Assembly (NCBI GenBank): GCA_035449045.1
Contig: DAOTKC010000003.1
Location: forward strand, 15,343 to 79,342
DNA from: Eubacteriales bacterium
GTDB lineage: Bacteria > Bacillota > Clostridia > Christensenellales > CAG-917
Direction: 5' to 3'
Length of the DNA: 64,000 bases
How positions within the stretch are numbered: position 1 is the first letter of the stretch; every line of letters starts with the position of its first letter. Made by a program: the position numbers and the translations under genes. This document shows, piece by piece, positions 53,855-63,281 of the stretch. The notes beneath the pieces are model-generated. The model did no database searches, was not told the DNA's origin, and saw only the letters and a program-made list of their open reading frames with translations.

Positions 53855-54925
53855 TTAATCCTCGTAGCCGTTCAAAAACAGGCTGTCCTCAAGGCGGTAG
53901 TAGTCGCCCTCTTTTACTATTCCGACGCAGTGCTCCTTCATCAGCTCAAATAGCCGCGCGCTGTCAATCAGCATGATGTTTTTGACCTTGGACTGGAGCA
54001 GCCGCGTTTCCTTGGTGAAGTTGCTGTTGGTGATGAGCACGCCCTTTGTCGCGCCGAAGGCGGTAACGACACCTATTAACTCGCGGATTACCTTGACCGA
54101 AACGTAGGCGCGCGAGTTGAGCTTGGTTTTGGACTGGAAGAAGATTTTATCGATGAAGCCCAAGCCGTCCTCCACCGTTAAAATGCCGTCTATTCCTTGG
54201 TCCTCGGGGCCTGCCGTCAGCTCCTCGCTCTTGACGGCGGCGCCGTAGCAGGATTTTAAAAGTTTCATCGACATTTGCTCGAAAAACTCTCCGCCGGCAA
54301 GATTTATGCACTCGATTGCGAGCTTTTTCAAGCGGTTGTTGTATTCCTCGGCCTTGAGCTTTTTGGCGCGGAGCTTCTCTAAGTTGTCGTCGCCCGTCTT
54401 TAGGAGCTTTCCCATCGGGGTGGCGGGATATTTATCGGGATCTTTTAAAATATACTTTTTGACCGATTCGTTCTCTAAAAACTCTTCCTCGATTTCGGAG
54501 AGCACCGATATGCCCTTGTGGGCAATGCTGTTGTCGGCCGATTTTCTCTTGATTATCTGGCCTAAAATGGCTTTCAGTTTATTTTTTTTGCCGCTCGGGC
54601 TGTTGTTCTTAACGTCCTCGGGCGTCAGGTATTTTTTGATGAAATATTCCTGAATTTCCTTTTCGGTGATGGGGATAACGTTCTTTTTCACGAGGTTGTC
54701 CTCGTCCAGCGTCAGAATGTTGGAGTTAATCAGCTCGTTGATGACGACGCCGGTCAGGCTCTTTAGGCGCGACGACAGGCTTTCGCAGCTGTGGTCGGCA
54801 AGCTCCTCGGCGGAATAGCCGAGGTTTTTTATCGTTTCGCTTATCAAAAGCTTGCGCTTTAATTTTGTTCCGTCGGCGAGAATCTTTAAAAGCTCCTCGC
54901 TGATTTTTAATTTTTCAGTCGTCAT
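53855..54925 (-). CDS. mrr: Mrr-family (type IV-like) restriction endonuclease
   Basis: C-terminal Mrr_cat-type PD-(D/E)XK core (GPEDQGIDGI...FFQSKTK...GVLITNSNFTKE). N-terminal winged-helix-like segment and a ~100-aa Lys-rich linker. No adjacent methyltransferase. Confidence 0.75.
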   Translation of the reverse strand: MTTEKLKISEELLKILADGTKLKRKLLISETIKNLGYSAEELADHSCESLSSRLKSLTGVVINELINSNILTLDEDNLVKKNVIPITEKEIQEYFIKKYLTPEDVKNNSPSGKKNKLKAILGQIIKRKSADNSIAHKGISVLSEIEEEFLENESVKKYILKDPDKYPATPMGKLLKTGDDNLEKLRAKKLKAEEYNNRLKKLAIECINLAGGEFFEQMSMKLLKSCYGAAVKSEELTAGPEDQGIDGILTVEDGLGFIDKIFFQSKTKLNSRAYVSVKVIRELIGVVTAFGATKGVLITNSNFTKETRLLQSKVKNIMLIDSARLFELMKEHCVGIVKEGDYYRLEDSLFLNGYED

Positions 54926-54987
54926 TATATCTCTTTTATCGTTATTCGATTTTTTTATTTAGATTTAATTTAGGTGGTAATATTTTT

Positions 54988-55030
54988 AATCCACAATTAT
55001 TCATTATTAATTATTAATTATTAATTATTT
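54988..55030 (+). repeat. copy A of the AATCCACAATTATTCATTATT plus (AATTATT)n repeat family
   Basis: Reads AATCCACAATTATTCATTATTAATTATTAATTATTAATTATTT. Lies in the recN-mrr spacer and overlaps the last codons and stop of recN. Confidence 0.85.
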
Positions 55031-56736
55031 GTTCGGCGCAGCCGCTTATATTCCGCCGCGTGAGCAAGCATGCTTTTTGCGTGCTTTTCGGCAAACTCGC
55101 TGTAATCTCCCCCGCCCGAAAGCCTCGCTATTTCGGCGACCAGCGCCGCTTCGTCCAAGACCTTGAGTTTGGTCAGCGTTTTGCCGTTTTCGACAACCTT
55201 GGTAATGAGGTAGGACGCGTCCGCCATCGATGCAAGCTGGGGAAGGTGCGTCACCGCGACGACCTGCCGCTCCGCAGAAATGTTGTAGAGTTTTTGGGCG
55301 ACGACCTCGGCCATGGCGCCCGAAATTCCCGAGTCAATCTCGTCGAAGACCATCGTCGCTATGTTTTCGAGGGATGCCGTGATGTTTTTCAGTGCCAACA
55401 TAAAGCGCGACATCTCGCCGCCCGATATGATTTTGGCAAGCGGTTTCAGCGGCTCGCCGATATTGGGCGAAATTAAAAATTCAACGGAATCACAGCCGTC
55501 CTCGCGCGCCGATTTAATGACGTCGTCGTCGCTTATTTCGGCAAAGGACACCGAAAACCGAGAGTTTCCCATGCCTAAATCTTTAAGCTCCTTAGTGACG
55601 TCGCCCTCAAAGCTTTGCGCCGCAGCTTTCCGCGCTTTCGTCAGGCGCGACAGCGCGATGACAAGCGCTTCCGACGCCGCTTCCAGCTCTTTTCCGAGCG
55701 CGGCTACTCGCTCCTCGGCGTTTTGAAGAAAATTGAGCTCAACTTCGGCCGAAGCCAAAAAGCGGTTGACCGCTTCGGCTGTGCCGCCGTATTTTTTCAG
55801 TATCGCGCGGATTTTTTGAATCCGCTCTTCAATCGCGGCTTCTTTGCGTTCGTCATATTCCAGATTTCCCGCAATATCTTTAAGAGATTTCGATATATCC
55901 TTAAGTTCTATTTTGGCACCTTCGAGCCTCTCTGCCAACGCCGCAATTTCTTCGTCGAAAGCCGAAACCCTTAAAAGAGAGTTTAGCGCTTGTCCGAGGG
56001 ATGCCAGCGCCGAATAGGAGGAGGCGCCGTTTAACGCGTCATACGCCGTGCCTAAGCCTTCGCCGATGACGCCTAAATTTTGGAGGCGTTTCCGTTCGGC
56101 AAGAAGGGCGTCAAGCTCGCCTTCTTTGACGGAAGCGGACTTTATCTCTTCAATTTGATAGGTTAAAACGTCGATTTTGCGCTCACGCTCGCTAGAGTCG
56201 CCGATTGAAGCTATCTCGGACTCAAGCTTTTTATAGTGCGAATACGCTCGAGCGGCCGCCTTTTTTAATGGGGATATAGCGTCGCGGCCGTAGGCGTCTA
56301 AAAGCTCAAGGTGAAAGTCGGGGTTCAACAAAAACTGGTGCTCGTGCTGGCCGTGGATGTCGGCCAAAAGCGCCGTCAAACCCTTTAGCGTCGACAGGCT
56401 GACCTGCCGATTGTTTATGCGGCACTCGTTTTTCCCCTCCGCCGTCATGACGCGCCTAAGAATGAGGACGTCGTCGTCCGAAATACCGATATCATTTAAA
56501 TATCCCGCTACGGCGGGCGTTATAAAATCAACAAAAACCGCCTCGACCGAAGCGCTCTTCTCGCTGTGGCGGATTAATGTGCGGTCGGCGCGTTCGCCCA
56601 AAACGAAATTGAGGCTGTCGATGATTATCGACTTGCCCGCGCCCGTTTCACCGCTCAGAATATTGAGGCCGGAAAACAGCTCGAGCCCGATATCGTCAAT
56701 CAGCGCGATATTTTTTATGGTGAGGGTTTTTAACAT
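55021..56736 (-). CDS. recN: DNA repair protein RecN
   Basis: SMC-like Walker A (GETGAGKSIIIDSL), coiled-coil, signature motif and Walker B. Confidence 0.96.
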   Translation of the reverse strand: MLKTLTIKNIALIDDIGLELFSGLNILSGETGAGKSIIIDSLNFVLGERADRTLIRHSEKSASVEAVFVDFITPAVAGYLNDIGISDDDVLILRRVMTAEGKNECRINNRQVSLSTLKGLTALLADIHGQHEHQFLLNPDFHLELLDAYGRDAISPLKKAAARAYSHYKKLESEIASIGDSSERERKIDVLTYQIEEIKSASVKEGELDALLAERKRLQNLGVIGEGLGTAYDALNGASSYSALASLGQALNSLLRVSAFDEEIAALAERLEGAKIELKDISKSLKDIAGNLEYDERKEAAIEERIQKIRAILKKYGGTAEAVNRFLASAEVELNFLQNAEERVAALGKELEAASEALVIALSRLTKARKAAAQSFEGDVTKELKDLGMGNSRFSVSFAEISDDDVIKSAREDGCDSVEFLISPNIGEPLKPLAKIISGGEMSRFMLALKNITASLENIATMVFDEIDSGISGAMAEVVAQKLYNISAERQVVAVTHLPQLASMADASYLITKVVENGKTLTKLKVLDEAALVAEIARLSGGGDYSEFAEKHAKSMLAHAAEYKRLRRTNN

Positions 56737-58349: not shown

Positions 58350-59486
58350 ATGAGAAAACTTTTTTTATTTTTTGCGGCCATACTCAGTTTAGCTTCAATC
58401 TTCGCGGCGGTCACTTCTTCCGCCGCCATATTTTCTTTTTCATCGGCGGAGGGGGCGGCCGAGATTTTAGGCCTCAAAATTGACGAAGGGTTAATTACTA
58501 AAATTAAAGAACATTTCGACAAGGAGCCTGCGGCCTCGGGCGGCGAGGAGGTCTATTTGGGCGGCGTTCCCGTTGGCGTCGAGCTGTTCGGCGACGGCGT
58601 CAAAATCATTAAAATTTTGGACGTCATAACCAGCAAGGGCGCGATATCGCCGCTCGCGGGAAAAAACATCGAGGCGGGCGACGTCATCACCCATATCAAC
58701 GGCCACATCGTCCGCTCGGTGGGCGAAGTCAAGGAGCGGTTGCTGGGCTCGGCCGGTCAGGTTACTTTGAGCGTCAAGCGCGGCGATACCTCCTTCACCG
58801 TTTCGGTCACGCCCGCGATTGATGCCGCGACAGGCCTTAGGAAGCTCGGCATCGAGCTTGAAAACAACACCAGCGGCATAGGCACTCTCACTTTCATAAG
58901 AAAAAACGGCCGCTTCGGCGCGCTGGGGCATAAGATTGCCGCCGAAGGCAAGCCCGCGCGCGGGCACGGCAATATTTATTTCGCGCGCATAAATTCCATC
59001 AGGCGCGGCGAAAAGGGCTGCGCGGGCGCGCTTCTCGGCAACTATCCCGTCAAGCGCAAAATCGGTGCGATTGACAAAAACGGGCCCTTCGGCATCTACG
59101 GCGATTGGAACAATCCCCCGCTCAAAACCACGGTATCGGTGGGCAGCCGCGACAAAGTGACGACGGGCGCCGCCCAAATCTATACCACAGTCAAGGGCGG
59201 GCGTCCCGAGCTTTACGACATAGAAATTATCAAAGCGTCGGAGCAAAGCGCGCCCGAAGAAAAGGGGTTGATGATAGTCATCACCGATAAACGGCTGATT
59301 GAGGCGACGGGCGGCATCGTGCAGGGAATGAGCGGAAGCCCCATTCTTCAAAACGGGCTTTTGGTGGGCGCGGTCACGCACGTGCTGACGGGCGAGCCGA
59401 CCAAAGGCTACGGCGTCTATATCGACTGGATGTTGCTTGAAAGCACGGCGGCCTACGGCAACGGCGAGATTGAGATTGCAGCGTAG
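58350..59486 (+). CDS. spoIVB: SpoIVB peptidase (stage IV sporulation signalling protease, S55)
   Basis: Signal/TM segment, PDZ domain, GTLTFI...FGALGH and the catalytic Ser motif GMSGSPI. Confidence 0.92.
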   Translation: MRKLFLFFAAILSLASIFAAVTSSAAIFSFSSAEGAAEILGLKIDEGLITKIKEHFDKEPAASGGEEVYLGGVPVGVELFGDGVKIIKILDVITSKGAISPLAGKNIEAGDVITHINGHIVRSVGEVKERLLGSAGQVTLSVKRGDTSFTVSVTPAIDAATGLRKLGIELENNTSGIGTLTFIRKNGRFGALGHKIAAEGKPARGHGNIYFARINSIRRGEKGCAGALLGNYPVKRKIGAIDKNGPFGIYGDWNNPPLKTTVSVGSRDKVTTGAAQIYTTVKGGRPELYDIEIIKASEQSAPEEKGLMIVITDKRLIEATGGIVQGMSGSPILQNGLLVGAVTHVLTGEPTKGYGVYIDWMLLESTAAYGNGEIEIAA

Positions 59487-59511
59487 CGGCGAAGTGGCTT
59501 CGCCGCTACGC
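59481..59511 (+). terminator. 14-bp perfect hairpin overlapping the spoIVB stop codon
   Basis: GCGTAGCGGCGAAG-tgg-CTTCGCCGCTACGC, followed by an AT-only tract rather than a clean T-run. Confidence 0.55.
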
Positions 59512-59513
59512 TG

Positions 59514-59600
59514 AATTAATAATTAATAATTAATAATTAATAATTAATAATTGTGGATTAGCGGCTTTGCCTAATTAATAATGAATAATGAATAATTGCG
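59514..59600 (-). repeat. copy B of the repeat family (inverted): (AATTAAT)x5, TTGTGGATT, GC clamp, then a second degenerate unit
   Basis: Plus strand reads AATTAAT x5, AATTGTGGATTAGCGGCTTTGCC, TAATTAATAATGAATAATGAATAATTGCGG. Its reverse complement matches copies A and C. Confidence 0.85.
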
Positions 59601-59652
59601 GTAATGTTGAAAGTGATTTTTGAAGAAAAACAAATAGGCGCGAGGCGGCGAT

Positions 59653-60453
59653 ATGGCGATTAAAAGCTCTATAAGCTTCGGGTTGGTTTATATTCCCGTC
59701 GAGCTTCAAAACACCATCAAAAACAACGATATCGGCTTCAACATGATTGACAAAAAGACGATGTCGCGCATTAAGTATAAAAAAACCTGCGTCGACTGCG
59801 AAGGCCGCGAGGTTAAGCAGGAGGATATCGTCAAAGGGTTTGAATACGAGCGCGGCAAATACGTGATTTTAGAGGAAGAAGAGCTGGAAAAAATCAAGAC
59901 GCAAAAGCAAAAGAGCATAGTCATCGAGCGTTTCGTCGATTTGGATGAGATTGACGCTCTCTATTTCGACAAGACTTACTATCTCGCGCCGACGGGAGCC
60001 GAAAAAGCGTTCACGCTGCTTTTAAAGGCGATGAACGACGAGAAGAAAGCGGGGATAGCCAAAACGGTGCTGGGCGCCAAGGAAACCTTGATAGTTATTA
60101 GGGCGCGCGGCGGCGAAATGCTTTTGAGCACTCTCTACTTTAAAGAAGAGGTGCGCCCCAACCCCGCCAAAAACATAGGCGGCGACGTCAGCGACAAGGA
60201 GCTTAGCGTAGCCAAAACCATAATCAAAACGATGGCGGGCAAGTTCGACCCCGAGGAATACCGCGACGAATACCGCGAAAAACTTGTCGCCGCCATCGAG
60301 AAAAAAATCAGCGGCAAAGAAATCGAGACGCCCAAGGAGCGGCCGCAATACCGCGTCGCCAACCGTATGGACGCCTTGGAGTCGACCTTGAAAGGGCTGG
60401 GCAAACCGACTCCCCCGCCCAAGAAAACCTCCCGCCCCCGCGCCACAAATTAA
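59653..60453 (+). CDS. ku: Ku protein (bacterial non-homologous end-joining DNA-end-binding protein)
   Basis: Typical bacterial Ku N-terminus (SISFGLVYIPVEL...) and core (YFDKTYYLAP...), with a basic C-terminal tail. Confidence 0.9.
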   Translation: MAIKSSISFGLVYIPVELQNTIKNNDIGFNMIDKKTMSRIKYKKTCVDCEGREVKQEDIVKGFEYERGKYVILEEEELEKIKTQKQKSIVIERFVDLDEIDALYFDKTYYLAPTGAEKAFTLLLKAMNDEKKAGIAKTVLGAKETLIVIRARGGEMLLSTLYFKEEVRPNPAKNIGGDVSDKELSVAKTIIKTMAGKFDPEEYRDEYREKLVAAIEKKISGKEIETPKERPQYRVANRMDALESTLKGLGKPTPPPKKTSRPRATN

Positions 60454-60478
60454 AACAGCCGCTCTCGCGGCTGTTTTC
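60452..60478 (+). terminator. intrinsic terminator of ku
   Basis: AAAACAGCCGC-tctc-GCGGCTGTTTTC. Confidence 0.8.
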
Positions 60479-60589
60479 AATCCACATTATTCGATTTAGT
60501 TTTTCGTTATTCGTTCGGCGCGCTAGCGCCGGTGTTCGGCGAAGCCGCCCAATCCACAATTATTCATTATTAATTATTCATTATTAATT
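60479..60589 (+). repeat. copy C of the repeat family (two units, forward orientation)
   Basis: Reads AATCCACATTATTCGATTTAGTTTTTCGTTATTCGTTCGGCGCGCTAGCGCCGGTGTTCGGCGAAGCCGCCCAATCCACAATTATTCATTATTAATTATTCATTATTAATT. Overlaps the hisS stop and its last 5 codons. Confidence 0.85.
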
Positions 60590-61845
60590 TTCCGTTTAAA
60601 GAAGTATTTCACCGCTTCGTCCAGCTTTATTTTCTCCACGCTTCCGTCGCCCAAAAACTTGACCTCGGCGGCGTTATTCTTAATTTCATCTTCGCCTATG
60701 ACGAGGACGGCAGCGGCGCCGTTTTTATCGGCGTATTTCATTTGCGCCTTTAAGCTTCTTGCCATGAGGTCGGTTGCGGCGGCGACGCCGTGCAGCCTCA
60801 GCTCATAGACAAGCCTCGCGGCGTAAGGGTATTGCTCCGCCCCGGCCGGCGCGACATAGACGTCTGCTCCGGTGTCGGAAAATCCTTTAAGGCGGCCGCA
60901 GTTTTCAAGCGTCAAAAGCAACCGCTCGATACCCAGCCCGAAGCCGACGGCCGCGGTGGGCTTTCCGCCCAGCGATTCGACAAGCCCGTTATAGCGGCCG
61001 CCGCCGCAGACGGTGCCCTGCGCGCCGATGTCGCTACTGACGAACTCGAAGACGGTATTCGTGTAATAATCGAGCCCGCGGACGATTCTCGGATTGACCT
61101 CGAAAGCGATGCTTAAATCTTTAAGCGCCGCCTTGACTCCCTCGAAGTGGGTTTTGCAGTCGCCGCATAAGTAGTCGGTGATTTTGGGCGCGTTTTCGCC
61201 GATTTTTTTGCAAGCGTCCTCCTTGCAGTCTAAAATTCTTAGCGGGTTTTTTAAGTATCTGTCGCGGCAAGTGGGGCAAAGCGCGGCAAGGCGCGGCTCG
61301 AAGTAGGCGACAAGGGCGCGGTTGTAGTCGGCGCGGCAATCCTTGCAGCCCATGCTGTTGATATAGAGCGTCAGCTTGTCAAGTCCCAAACGGTCGAACA
61401 GCGTCTTGGCAAGGCTTATTACCTCGGCGTCCGCCAATGGCTCAATGGAGCCGAACAGCTCGACGCCGAACTGGTGGTGCTGGCGAAGCCGTCCCGACTG
61501 CGGCCGCTCATAGCGGAAAATCGGCGAGATGTAAAACGCCTTAAAAGGTTGAGGCAGCGCAAAGAGCGAGTTTTCGATAAAGCTTCTGACGACGCCCGCC
61601 GTGCCCTCGGGCTTGAGCGTGATACTGCGCCCGCCCTTGTCCTCGAAGGTATACATTTCCTTGTTGACGATGTCGGTCGTCTCGCCCACGCCGCGCAAAA
61701 ACAGCTCGGTGTGCTCGAAGACGGGCGTTCTTATTTCCTTAAAACCGAAAAGCCGCGCCGTTTCTCTTGCTTGACTCTCGATATATTGCGTCTTATACGC
61801 CTCGCTCGGCAATAAATCCTTAGTCCCCTTGGGAATATTAATCAT
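60574..61845 (-). CDS. hisS: histidine--tRNA ligase
   Basis: Class II aaRS motifs (FRYERPQSGRLRQHHQ, GGGRYN) and an anticodon-binding domain. Confidence 0.96.
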   Translation of the reverse strand: MINIPKGTKDLLPSEAYKTQYIESQARETARLFGFKEIRTPVFEHTELFLRGVGETTDIVNKEMYTFEDKGGRSITLKPEGTAGVVRSFIENSLFALPQPFKAFYISPIFRYERPQSGRLRQHHQFGVELFGSIEPLADAEVISLAKTLFDRLGLDKLTLYINSMGCKDCRADYNRALVAYFEPRLAALCPTCRDRYLKNPLRILDCKEDACKKIGENAPKITDYLCGDCKTHFEGVKAALKDLSIAFEVNPRIVRGLDYYTNTVFEFVSSDIGAQGTVCGGGRYNGLVESLGGKPTAAVGFGLGIERLLLTLENCGRLKGFSDTGADVYVAPAGAEQYPYAARLVYELRLHGVAAATDLMARSLKAQMKYADKNGAAAVLVIGEDEIKNNAAEVKFLGDGSVEKIKLDEAVKYFFKRKINNE

Positions 61846-61967: not shown

Positions 61968-63281
61968 TTACAAAATATATTTGTTCAAGTTCAACGTCTT
62001 CAGGCTCTTTTCGAGGTGTTTTTCAACGTAGGTGTCGTCGATGACGAATTCTCTTTCGCTCTCGCCCGAGGCCTCGAAGGAGATATCCTCAAGCAGTTGT
62101 TCCATGACGGCGTGAAGCCTTCTCGCGCCGAGGTTTTCGCTGTTTTCGTTTTCGAGCGCGGCGACTTTGGCGATTTTTGCTATCGCCTCGTCGGTGAACT
62201 TGAGTTCGACGCCGTCAATTTTCAGAAGCTCTTGGTATTGCATTAAAATGGCGTTGTCGGGTTGGGTGAGAATTTTAATGAAGTCCTCCTCGCTCAAACT
62301 GTCGAGCTCGACTCTTATCGGGAATCTGCCCTGAAGCTCGGGAATTAAGTCTTGTATGTTGGAGATGTGGAAGGCGCCCGCCGCGATAAAGAGGATAAAG
62401 TCCGTCCTTATCGGCCCGTGCTTGGTTTGAACGGTGCTGCCTTCGACAATGGGCAGAATATCGCGCTGAACGCCTTCTCTTGAAACGTCGGGGCCGTGCC
62501 CGCCCGAAGCGCCGGCGACTTTGTCAATCTCGTCGATGAACACCACGCCGTCCTGTTCGGCACGGCGGAGCGCCTCCTGAATGATTGTGTCGTTGTCGAT
62601 TAATTTGGCCGATTCCTCGGAGATTATAAAGTCCATCGCCTGCTTGACGGTGATTTTCTTTCTTTTCTTTCGGGGCGGACCGAACACCGAGCCTATCACC
62701 TGCCCGAAATCAATGCTATTGTCCATTTGGGGGTTGATGTTGAGGGGCTTGGGCTGCTCCTTTATTTCAAGCTCGACCTGAATGTTGTTGAGGTTGCCCG
62801 CCCTAAGCTCGCGGAGGATTTCCTCGCGAATCTCGGCGTCCGACATATCGACTGTCAGCGTCTTTTTGCGGACGGGCAAGAGCGTTTCGACTATTACTTT
62901 TTCGGCGGCCTCGGTGGCGCGCGGCTGAACCTCTTTGTATTTTTCCTCGCGCACCATTCTGATAGCGACCTCCGCCAAATCGCGGATTATCGACTCGACG
63001 TCGCGGCCGACGTAGCCCACTTCGGTGAATTTTGTCGCTTCGACCTTGATAAATGGCGCTCTGACGAGCCTCGCCAGCCTTCTCGCTATCTCGGTCTTGC
63101 CGACGCCGGTAGGCCCTTTCATGATGATGTTTTTGGGCGTGATTTCCTCGCGCAGCTCTTCGGGAAGCCGGCTCCTTCTGTAACGGTTTCTGAGCGCGAT
63201 CGCGACGGCCACTTTGGCTTTTTGCTGGCCGATGATATAGCGGTCAAGCTCCGACACTATATTTTTAGGTGACAGTTCCAT
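61968..63281 (-). CDS. hslU: ATP-dependent protease ATPase subunit HslU
   Basis: AAA+ Walker A GPTGVGKTEIARRLA, an I-domain, Walker B IVFIDEIDK, and sensor motifs. Confidence 0.96.
   Translation of the reverse strand: MELSPKNIVSELDRYIIGQQKAKVAVAIALRNRYRRSRLPEELREEITPKNIIMKGPTGVGKTEIARRLARLVRAPFIKVEATKFTEVGYVGRDVESIIRDLAEVAIRMVREEKYKEVQPRATEAAEKVIVETLLPVRKKTLTVDMSDAEIREEILRELRAGNLNNIQVELEIKEQPKPLNINPQMDNSIDFGQVIGSVFGPPRKKRKKITVKQAMDFIISEESAKLIDNDTIIQEALRRAEQDGVVFIDEIDKVAGASGGHGPDVSREGVQRDILPIVEGSTVQTKHGPIRTDFILFIAAGAFHISNIQDLIPELQGRFPIRVELDSLSEEDFIKILTQPDNAILMQYQELLKIDGVELKFTDEAIAKIAKVAALENENSENLGARRLHAVMEQLLEDISFEASGESEREFVIDDTYVEKHLEKSLKTLNLNKYIL

Follow-up and report, generated by a model that had tools for sequence, protein, structure and literature searches.

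Inverted composite repeats around ku belong to a modular intergenic repeat family in an uncultured Christensenellales bacterium

Introduction

Does a gene that sits alone between inverted repeats travel with them? The question is raised by ku on contig DAOTKC010000003.1 of an Eubacteriales bacterium (GenBank assembly GCA_035449045.1; Christensenellales, CAG-917), where a single open reading frame (ORF) is enclosed by two composite inverted arms. An earlier interpretation, made from the letters alone and hereafter the sequence-only reading, had taken the gene to be packaged as a one-gene cassette resembling a miniature inverted-repeat transposable element (MITE) or a cargo module bounded by recombination sites. 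We examined the locus in a 64,000-nt stretch of the contig (the window, whose numbering is used throughout), together with DNA past both window ends taken from contigs of the same species, giving a readable region of ~84 kb. The arms prove to be members of a repeat family that is dispersed in this region. The reading we favour, with a probability of about 0.55, is that they represent a lineage-specific family of modular intergenic repeats, similar to MITEs and to bacterial interspersed mosaic elements (BIMEs), with slippage-prone heptamer ends, and that ku lies between two such arms.

Composite arms flanking ku

A stand-alone ku gene (59653–60453, plus strand; 266 aa; Pfam Ku, E = 3e-47) occupies the interval between spoIVB (58350–59486, plus strand; Pfam Peptidase_S55; stop codon TAG at 59484–59486) and hisS (60574–61845, minus strand; 423 aa). 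No ligD occurs beside ku or anywhere in the ~84 kb. A repeat search identified inverted arms at 59521–59559 and 60551–60589, 39 nt long, 95% complementary and 991 nt apart. BLAST lengthens the match to 55 nt at 89%; the inverted repeat reaches this length because GCGGCTTYGCC follows the core in both arms. On the plus strand the left flank (59514–59565) reads (AATTAAT)x5-AATTGTGGATT-AGCGGC and the right flank (60544–60590) reads GCCGCCC-AATCCACAATTATTCATTATTAATTATTCATTATTAATT. The sequence-only reading was therefore accurate in describing reverse-complementary flanks with arrays outside and a core plus GC clamp inside. A chance origin of these repeats is excluded: the 17-mer AATTAATAATKAATAAT, allowing at most two mismatches, has 18 matches against 0.04 expected, and the exact 14-mer AATAATTGTGGATT occurs three times, whereas at least three matches were obtained in only 3 of 100 shuffles even when up to two mismatches were allowed.

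Each ku arm is composite and at least 90 nt long. The left arm (plus strand) opens with unit A1, comprising an (AATTAAT)x5 array at 59514–59548 and the core AATTGTGGATT at 59549–59559. It continues through GCGGCTTTGCC (59561–59571), which matches GCGGCTTCGCC of the right arm (minus strand, 60538–60548), into unit A2 (59572–59601), a degenerate second array of TAATGAA period that reads TAATTAATAATGAATAATGAATAATTGCGG and ends in AATTGCGG. The right arm, on the minus strand, opens with unit B1 (60551–60589), consisting of four AATKAAT units and the core AATTGTGGATT at 60551–60561. A GC-rich spacer (60516–60550) follows, carrying a small hairpin, CGGCGC-GCTA-GCGCCG, and GCGGCTTCGCC. The inner part, B2 (60478–60515), combines a second core, TGTGGATTG, with an (AACGAAW)-type 7-nt array; read on the plus strand, 60479–60515 contains a TTATTCG-type 7-nt array plus ATCCACA. 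The second degenerate unit that had been proposed for each flank is thus present, at 59572–59601 and 60479–60515.

The enclosed interval is fully accounted for by the ku ORF, its ribosome-binding site and its terminator, as had also been claimed. A 51-nt leader precedes the gene, with GAGG at 59642–59645, 7 nt before the ATG, and the stop codon sits inside a bidirectional intrinsic terminator hairpin (60452–60477; −17.4 kcal/mol on the plus strand, −20 kcal/mol on the minus strand) that is common to ku (plus) and hisS (minus). On the outer side, a hairpin with a perfect 16-bp stem and a 3-nt loop (59479–59513, plus strand; −32.6 kcal/mol, z = −7.9) overlaps the spoIVB stop codon and directly abuts the left array, while the last codons and stop of hisS overlap the right arm.

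Further copies of the family

A BLAST search with all five arms against the ~84 kb returned exactly three loci: a solo arm (C), the ku pair, and a second inverted pair (D). The arms are therefore not specific to ku. Arm C (54926–55030, minus strand) carries an array that overlaps the stop codon (55021–55023) of recN (55021–56736), the core AATTGTGGATT at 54988–54998, and an AT-rich stretch with CGAATAACGATAAA that reaches the ATG of a gene of Mrr_cat type (53855–54925). It includes the third exact copy of AATAATTGTGGATT (54988–55001, minus strand) within a full core-plus-array copy at 54988–55030, and no inverted partner lies within 51–55 kb. The gene at 53855–54925 (minus strand; 356 aa), directly after recN, has a C-terminal Mrr_cat/NA-iREase1 nuclease domain and an N-terminal half without domain assignment, and may be a defence or accessory gene.

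The D pair lies ~3.9 kb left of the window start (same-species contig L044, 5539–5845), between a radical-SAM gene and rho. Its arms are 48 nt long, 73% complementary and 202 nt apart, with nested inverted repeats, and they surround no more than 100–200 nt of non-coding DNA. The left arm, D_L, starts in the last codons of the radical-SAM gene with AATTAATAATTAATAATGAATAATGAATTACTGCGGTGGG and continues through a GC piece into an (AACGAAA)n array; D_R is an inverted, more degenerate arm by the rho terminator. The whole unit, ~300 nt, folds as DNA into a long imperfect hairpin (−42 kcal/mol, z = −2.1). Its centre holds GGAGG followed by an ATG-AAA-TAA mini-ORF, as well as TTATAAT-like hexamers.

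Homology among the arms was judged by multiple alignment and, for the sequence on the inner side of the first core, by pairwise tests. Beyond that core, the right ku arm shares with D_L the 22-nt block CGCCGAACGAATAACGAAAAAC (20/22 identical, p < 0.001) and with D_R the sequence AACGAAAAACTAAA...TGTGGAT(T/G)GAA (p = 0.001), and AAA(T/C)AG(G/C)CGCGAG(A)GCGGC is common to the inner parts of both ku arms, beside the ORF (p = 0.005). B2 accordingly shares homology with the inner segments of both D arms, and the D pair is a cargo-less, MITE-like copy of the ku-arm family. A full arm has the order (AATKAAT)n array, core AATTGTGGATT, GC-rich piece, (AACGAAW)n array and second TGTGGAT core. The left ku arm departs from this order: in place of the GC piece and AACGAAW array of the right arm it carries a second AATGAAT array. 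Symmetry of the ku pair therefore extends over only ~55 nt. The proposed likeness to a MITE or cargo module is partly supported, in that two of the three loci are inverted pairs, one of them without cargo, but the arms are not tied to ku.

The array-plus-core module in other genomes

A scan of one genome per species with the query AATAATKAATAATTGTGGATT found the ~40-nt array-plus-core module on at least eight contigs or loci of a single metagenome-assembled genome (MAG), Bacillota bacterium FM_56_G125_V (JAWXUT01); other genomes gave single matches. The FM_56 MAG has 37% GC against ~50% here, and its module is 35/39 identical to the right ku arm and directly follows a small hairpin, as the left ku array does. 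The heptamer array and TTGTGGATT end make up a module also present in distant Bacillota. The FM_56 copies are embedded in mosaic repeats with inverted 30-mers that resemble BIMEs and the paired form of repetitive extragenic palindromic (REP) sequences, REPINs. Sibling variants consist of (AGTGAAG)n followed by AAGTTGAGGATAAA or AAGTGTGGAATG. Their neighbours are ordinary chromosomal genes (for example MetRS and DUF1256) in mixed orientations, and no transposase was seen next to the copies. Other repeat modules of this MAG (GGGCGTCAGAGGAC..., TTTATCCGTGGCAC...) are absent from the window. Its intergenic regions (L003–L018) are dense in mosaic repeats, among them units of ~30 nt (GGGCGTCAGAGGACTAACGCACCCTACAAT) that occur in either orientation, small hairpins (AACCCGCAAGCGGGTT) and 7-nt arrays of several kinds, and many copies lie at contig ends.

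A few metagenomic contigs (L021/34, L023, L025, L033/35, L001) carry three to five units plus a core, mostly at a co-oriented stop codon; these may be homologues or independent microsatellite expansions. Single 21-mer matches in Flavobacteria, Mycoplasmatota and others were set aside as chance, consisting of the one unit that the search pattern demands and in several cases lying inside ORFs on the opposite strand.

Strain variation and re-termination of hisS

Nine same-species assemblies from different samples all have the order spoIVB–ku–hisS with ku in one orientation. Over the 1.2-kb ku region, an alignment of five sequences (the window and L040–L043) contains four base substitutions in all. 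The left array varies by a whole unit, with five AATTAAT units in L040, L043, L052–L055 and the window and four in L041, L042 and L020; the corresponding gene spacing of 166 or 159 nt matches this 7-nt indel. A difference of one entire unit between near-identical strains means that the array mutates like a microsatellite, which points to slippage. Assemblies also differ by a 1-nt indel at about 60545, in the C-run adjoining the right core. Within ku itself, position 60365 is G in the window (CGT, Arg238) and T in four other assemblies (CTT, Leu).

The right arm has left a mark on the adjacent protein. HisS here ends in a 6-aa extension, RKINNE*, encoded across the junction and into the array, which supplies INNE and the stop codon. 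Among the 59 closest HisS homologues aligned (62–66% identity, mostly 413–417 aa), almost all lack this tail and most end in ...YFxK. The right arm thus arrived secondarily, and its insertion displaced the earlier stop codon and re-terminated hisS. The recN product (..TNN*) and the radical-SAM protein (..DFN*) likewise take their stop codon from the array.

Is ku cargo?

The layout could be explained if ku were the passenger of a non-autonomous element akin to mobile insertion cassettes (MICs), with the arms as terminal inverted repeats, a transposase elsewhere acting in trans, and the D pair as the empty vehicle. Passenger-gene MICs are documented (PMC4337579, PMC5444012, PMC6542083), and several features of the locus fit one: the ku leader and terminator border exactly on the composite arms, which enclose a single gene but no transposase; 60 kb away lies an empty pair whose arms are homologous; and the solo arm precedes another gene of accessory type, the Mrr_cat gene. 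Sequence distances are also compatible with movement. The closest Ku homologues (66–70% identity; L036, L038) are as near as those of HisS (62–66%), though identity to the nearest SpoIVB falls to 45%. These Ku homologues stand alone in unrelated neighbourhoods, an arrangement compatible with general mobility of ku. The nearest SpoIVB relative shows neither synteny nor arrays, and the collections contained no relative near enough for its spoIVB–hisS interval to be compared. On its contig (L048, 9200–10060), a gap of ~870 nt after spoIVB looks like a structured RNA gene, with a by-eye resemblance to RNase P RNA.

Against a passenger role, the closest Ku homologues on L036 and L038 lack such arms, and we found no second locus or genome that holds ku with them. 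The composition of the gene is native: ku has a third-position GC content (GC3) of 0.685 and a codon-usage distance of 0.104, compared with a GC3 of 0.658 ± 0.041 for 48 window genes. A foreign composition was rejected both for ku and for the Mrr-like gene. No direct repeat marks the outer borders of the ku pair (CGCTACGCTG|AATTAAT... versus ...ATTAATT|TTCCGTTT), and no target-site duplication is visible at the D pair, with the proviso that element ends which are microsatellites are ambiguous for this test. These outer ends, one of them fused to the hisS frame, and the short symmetry of the arms, whose inner left part is unlike the right, also count against a cassette.

The region also offers no candidate for a mobilising enzyme. 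Among the genes of the ~84 kb, Pfam recognises no transposase, integrase or recombinase, and no cognate insertion sequence (IS) was found there, in agreement with the earlier observation that none lies nearby; the gene content is housekeeping (addAB, dinB, ffh, rpsP, trmD, topA, dprA, hslUV and others). Among the same-species assemblies, arm presence is invariant and content and orientation are the same, although sequences this close to identical over the aligned ku region make a weak test; all contigs with identical or at least 90% identical RecN, Ku or HslV are of the same species. Collections of plasmid, phage and viral sequences held no contig with the arms, returning only a 77-nt ku-internal match to Mesorhizobium plasmids. 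Rfam (E up to 1, 54.0–61.5 kb) gave no match and a literature string search for the core and arrays matched no paper, in keeping with the earlier remark that the repeat was not recognised as a described element. We find no evidence that ku currently travels with its arms. The part of the sequence-only reading in which ku is packaged, that is, moves with them, is not supported, given the missing duplication and polymorphism, the native composition and the armless closest homologues, and we consider a passenger role unlikely.

Several other identities were considered and rejected. An integron cassette does not fit, there being no GTTRRRY-bounded imperfect palindrome in the flanks and no integrase in the 84 kb. 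As DnaA boxes, the cores (TAATCCACA or CAATCCACA) match only 7–8 of the 9 positions of TTATCCACA, with A always at position 2, and the absence of a GC-skew inflection at 55–61 kb also speaks against an origin. No LexA (Cheo) box is present in the arms or near recN or ku; the only GAAC-N4-GTTC in the window, at 62196, is at chance level. A virtual excision of D restores an in-frame TAA before the terminator, but this does not discriminate, since 374 of ~800 combinations of cut points likewise place a stop within 30 nt.

Position relative to genes

Every one of the five arms has the orientation of the gene at whose 3′ end it lies. Three arms overlap the stop codon of that gene, a fourth comes after the hairpin at the spoIVB stop, and the fifth comes after the rho terminator; the arms start at or within ~30 nt of the upstream stop, except D_R, which lies just past the terminator of rho. 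In gene maps of the 84 kb, paired arms occupy 2 of ~7 convergent junctions, compared with arms at 1–2 of ~55 co-directional junctions. This preference for convergent gaps is typical of REP- and MITE-like DNA, for which such gaps are the best-tolerated sites. The position rule means that the inverted layout at ku can arise either from a palindromic element or from two separate gene-end arms. Because the forward strand of an arm has stop codons in every frame, an arm cannot lie inside a co-oriented ORF, which inflates the association with stop codons; for this reason, and with only five arms, the orientation evidence is weak.

Together, spoIVB and ku (58350–60453) form a small plus-strand island in a long minus-strand run, with spoIVB divergent from nadK-argR-recN, whereas in Bacillus subtilis spoIVB follows recN. 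This arrangement points to an earlier local rearrangement close to the repeat loci. Farther away, ~7–10 kb right of the window end (L040/L041, 413–2982) and near comM, dprA and topA, a DUF2357 gene and a 220-aa partner with no Pfam match may form a restriction or defence module.

The placement of the arms also admits a functional interpretation, in which array plus core is a cis element: a portable AT-rich promoter or operator, or a 3′ untranslated region (UTR) element, regulating the following gene or short terminator-bounded transcripts. The five co-oriented arms, near a stop or past the rho terminator, would suit this role, and downstream of them either a gene follows in the same direction (A1 to ku, C to the Mrr-like gene) or 70–250 nt lead to a terminator (B1, D_L). 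Matches to a sigma-70-like promoter, TTAATA-17-AATAAT, occur in every array copy, and the best such match upstream of ku lies in A2 (TTGCCT-18-AATAAT, 59567–59596); the matches are weak, however (9/12), and every AT-only 7-nt array yields them automatically. Conservation of the 40-nt module spans genomes of 50% and 37% GC, multi-unit copies sit at co-oriented stops in other low-GC contigs (L021, L023, L025, L033), and the unit-number polymorphism upstream of ku could tune its expression. Set against these points are the inflated stop-codon association, the mixed orientations of flanking genes in the FM_56 MAG, and the situation of B1 and D_L, which face only a terminator or an antisense strand. 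Nor does the module correspond to an Rfam family, show dyad symmetry or contain a recognisable operator, its core falling short of a DnaA box and its arms lacking a LexA box. A regulatory role of this kind is, in our judgement, somewhat more doubtful than a passenger role for ku.

Interpretation

The existence of the family is an observation: its arms are dispersed and composite, the outer array varies by whole 7-nt units between strains, and the right ku arm is a secondary insertion that gave hisS its present stop. Under the favoured reading of a lineage-specific MITE/BIME-like family, the arms would have spread through some transposition or recombination activity acting in trans. The ku pair may be a palindromic element that came to hold the gene, or may have formed by two arm insertions beside a resident ku. 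The family would behave as selfish intergenic DNA of MITE/BIME type, being multi-copy, present as solo arms or hairpin-forming inverted pairs, and located at gene 3′ ends; at the ku locus it occupies the gap between convergent spoIVB and hisS. Possible side effects include the supply of stop codons in all frames to upstream genes and of AT-rich, promoter-like sequence before ku and the Mrr-like gene.

Several results weigh against this interpretation. A mobilising enzyme was not found in the ~84 kb, no target-site duplication is visible, and the nine same-species assemblies show no presence/absence polymorphism. All copies come from three loci in ~84 kb, so genome-wide dispersal is an extrapolation. 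The five co-oriented arms, three of them on stop codons, could mean a function in transcripts or regulation, and the retention of a 40-nt module between genomes of 50% and 37% GC hints at a conserved recognition factor.

A bolder proposal builds on the same features. The composite arms might constitute an undescribed single-gene cassette system, in which palindromic vehicles or landing pads in convergent gaps are either empty (D) or loaded (ku, perhaps the Mrr-like gene) and are mobilised by a trans-acting enzyme specific for both the heptamer array and the TTGTGGATT end. We regard this as speculative and less probable again than a cis-regulatory role; if it were correct, the DNA-repair gene ku would be a mobile accessory in these anaerobes. 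Far less plausible, and in our view very improbable, is a site-specific recombinase switch inverting the ku segment in the manner of an inverton or shufflon: a 39-nt, 95% inverted repeat does flank a segment of ~1 kb and the spoIVB–ku island does stand among minus-strand genes, but ku has its own leader and terminator inside the arms, so that inversion would leave its promoter connection unchanged, and only one orientation is present in nine assemblies, no recombinase is encoded in the 84 kb, and solo and empty copies exist.

Read as MITE/BIME-like intergenic DNA, the locus adds an undescribed small modular repeat family in uncultured Christensenellales from engineered and anaerobic metagenomes. 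Its instructive traits are strain-variable, microsatellite-like ends, the re-termination of a housekeeping gene (the 6-aa tail of HisS) and a preference for gene 3′ ends. Knowledge of the family helps annotation, since its arms account for unusual C-terminal tails and AT-rich islands and perhaps for contig breaks, and the family may serve as a strain marker. Should loaded and empty pairs occur at many sites, ku, a gene of non-homologous end joining, would be the cargo of a non-autonomous element and the finding would carry greater weight.

Comparison with known systems

MICs, such as MIC231 of Bacillus cereus, the Tn3-type MICs of Xanthomonas and the qnrS2 MIC of Aeromonas (PMC6542083, PMC4337579, PMC5444012), resemble the ku unit in having inverted repeats around one passenger gene and no transposase. 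They are defined, however, by ends that match a known IS or transposon, by target duplications and by occurrence in several contexts, none of which is shown for the ku unit.

Bacterial MITEs of the ERIC/IRU, Correia and RUP type share more with the family. Like them, element D (~300 bp) is short and non-coding, with imperfect inverted arms that fold into a long hairpin, and the family as a whole occurs in several copies, in intergenic positions, at gene 3′ ends and in convergent gaps. Its copy number for this comparison is three loci (five arms) in ~84 kb and at least eight loci in the FM_56 MAG. Terminal inverted repeats are present (39 nt at 95% for the ku pair, 48 nt at 73% for the D pair), and a neighbouring ORF is extended or re-terminated, as in the HisS tail. 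In contrast to MITEs, the family has variable 7-nt microsatellite arrays as its outer ends in place of fixed terminal repeats, lacks a recognisable target-site duplication and a known cognate IS, and also includes single arms; moreover, MITEs are non-coding and under ~600 bp, whereas the ku unit is 1.08 kb and encodes Ku.

With the BIMEs and REP sequences of enterobacteria and the BOX elements of pneumococci, the family has in common short modules in variable number and order and an extragenic, lineage-specific distribution; such elements are often transcribed as 3′ UTRs. The placement of the FM_56 module among REPIN-like inverted 30-mers strengthens the likeness to BIMEs and REP sequences. 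The differences are that the array-plus-core unit has no dyad symmetry of its own, that its variable module is a 7-nt microsatellite, and that no gene of the REP-associated tyrosine transposase (RAYT) type or other Y1 transposase was seen in the 84 kb.

A final comparison is with heptanucleotide contingency repeats, exemplified by the 7-bp repeats in the hmw promoters of Haemophilus influenzae. The ku array differs from these in belonging to a dispersed composite repeat, and any effect on expression is conjectural here; what it shares with them is a tandem 7-nt array upstream of a gene, with a unit number that varies between strains.

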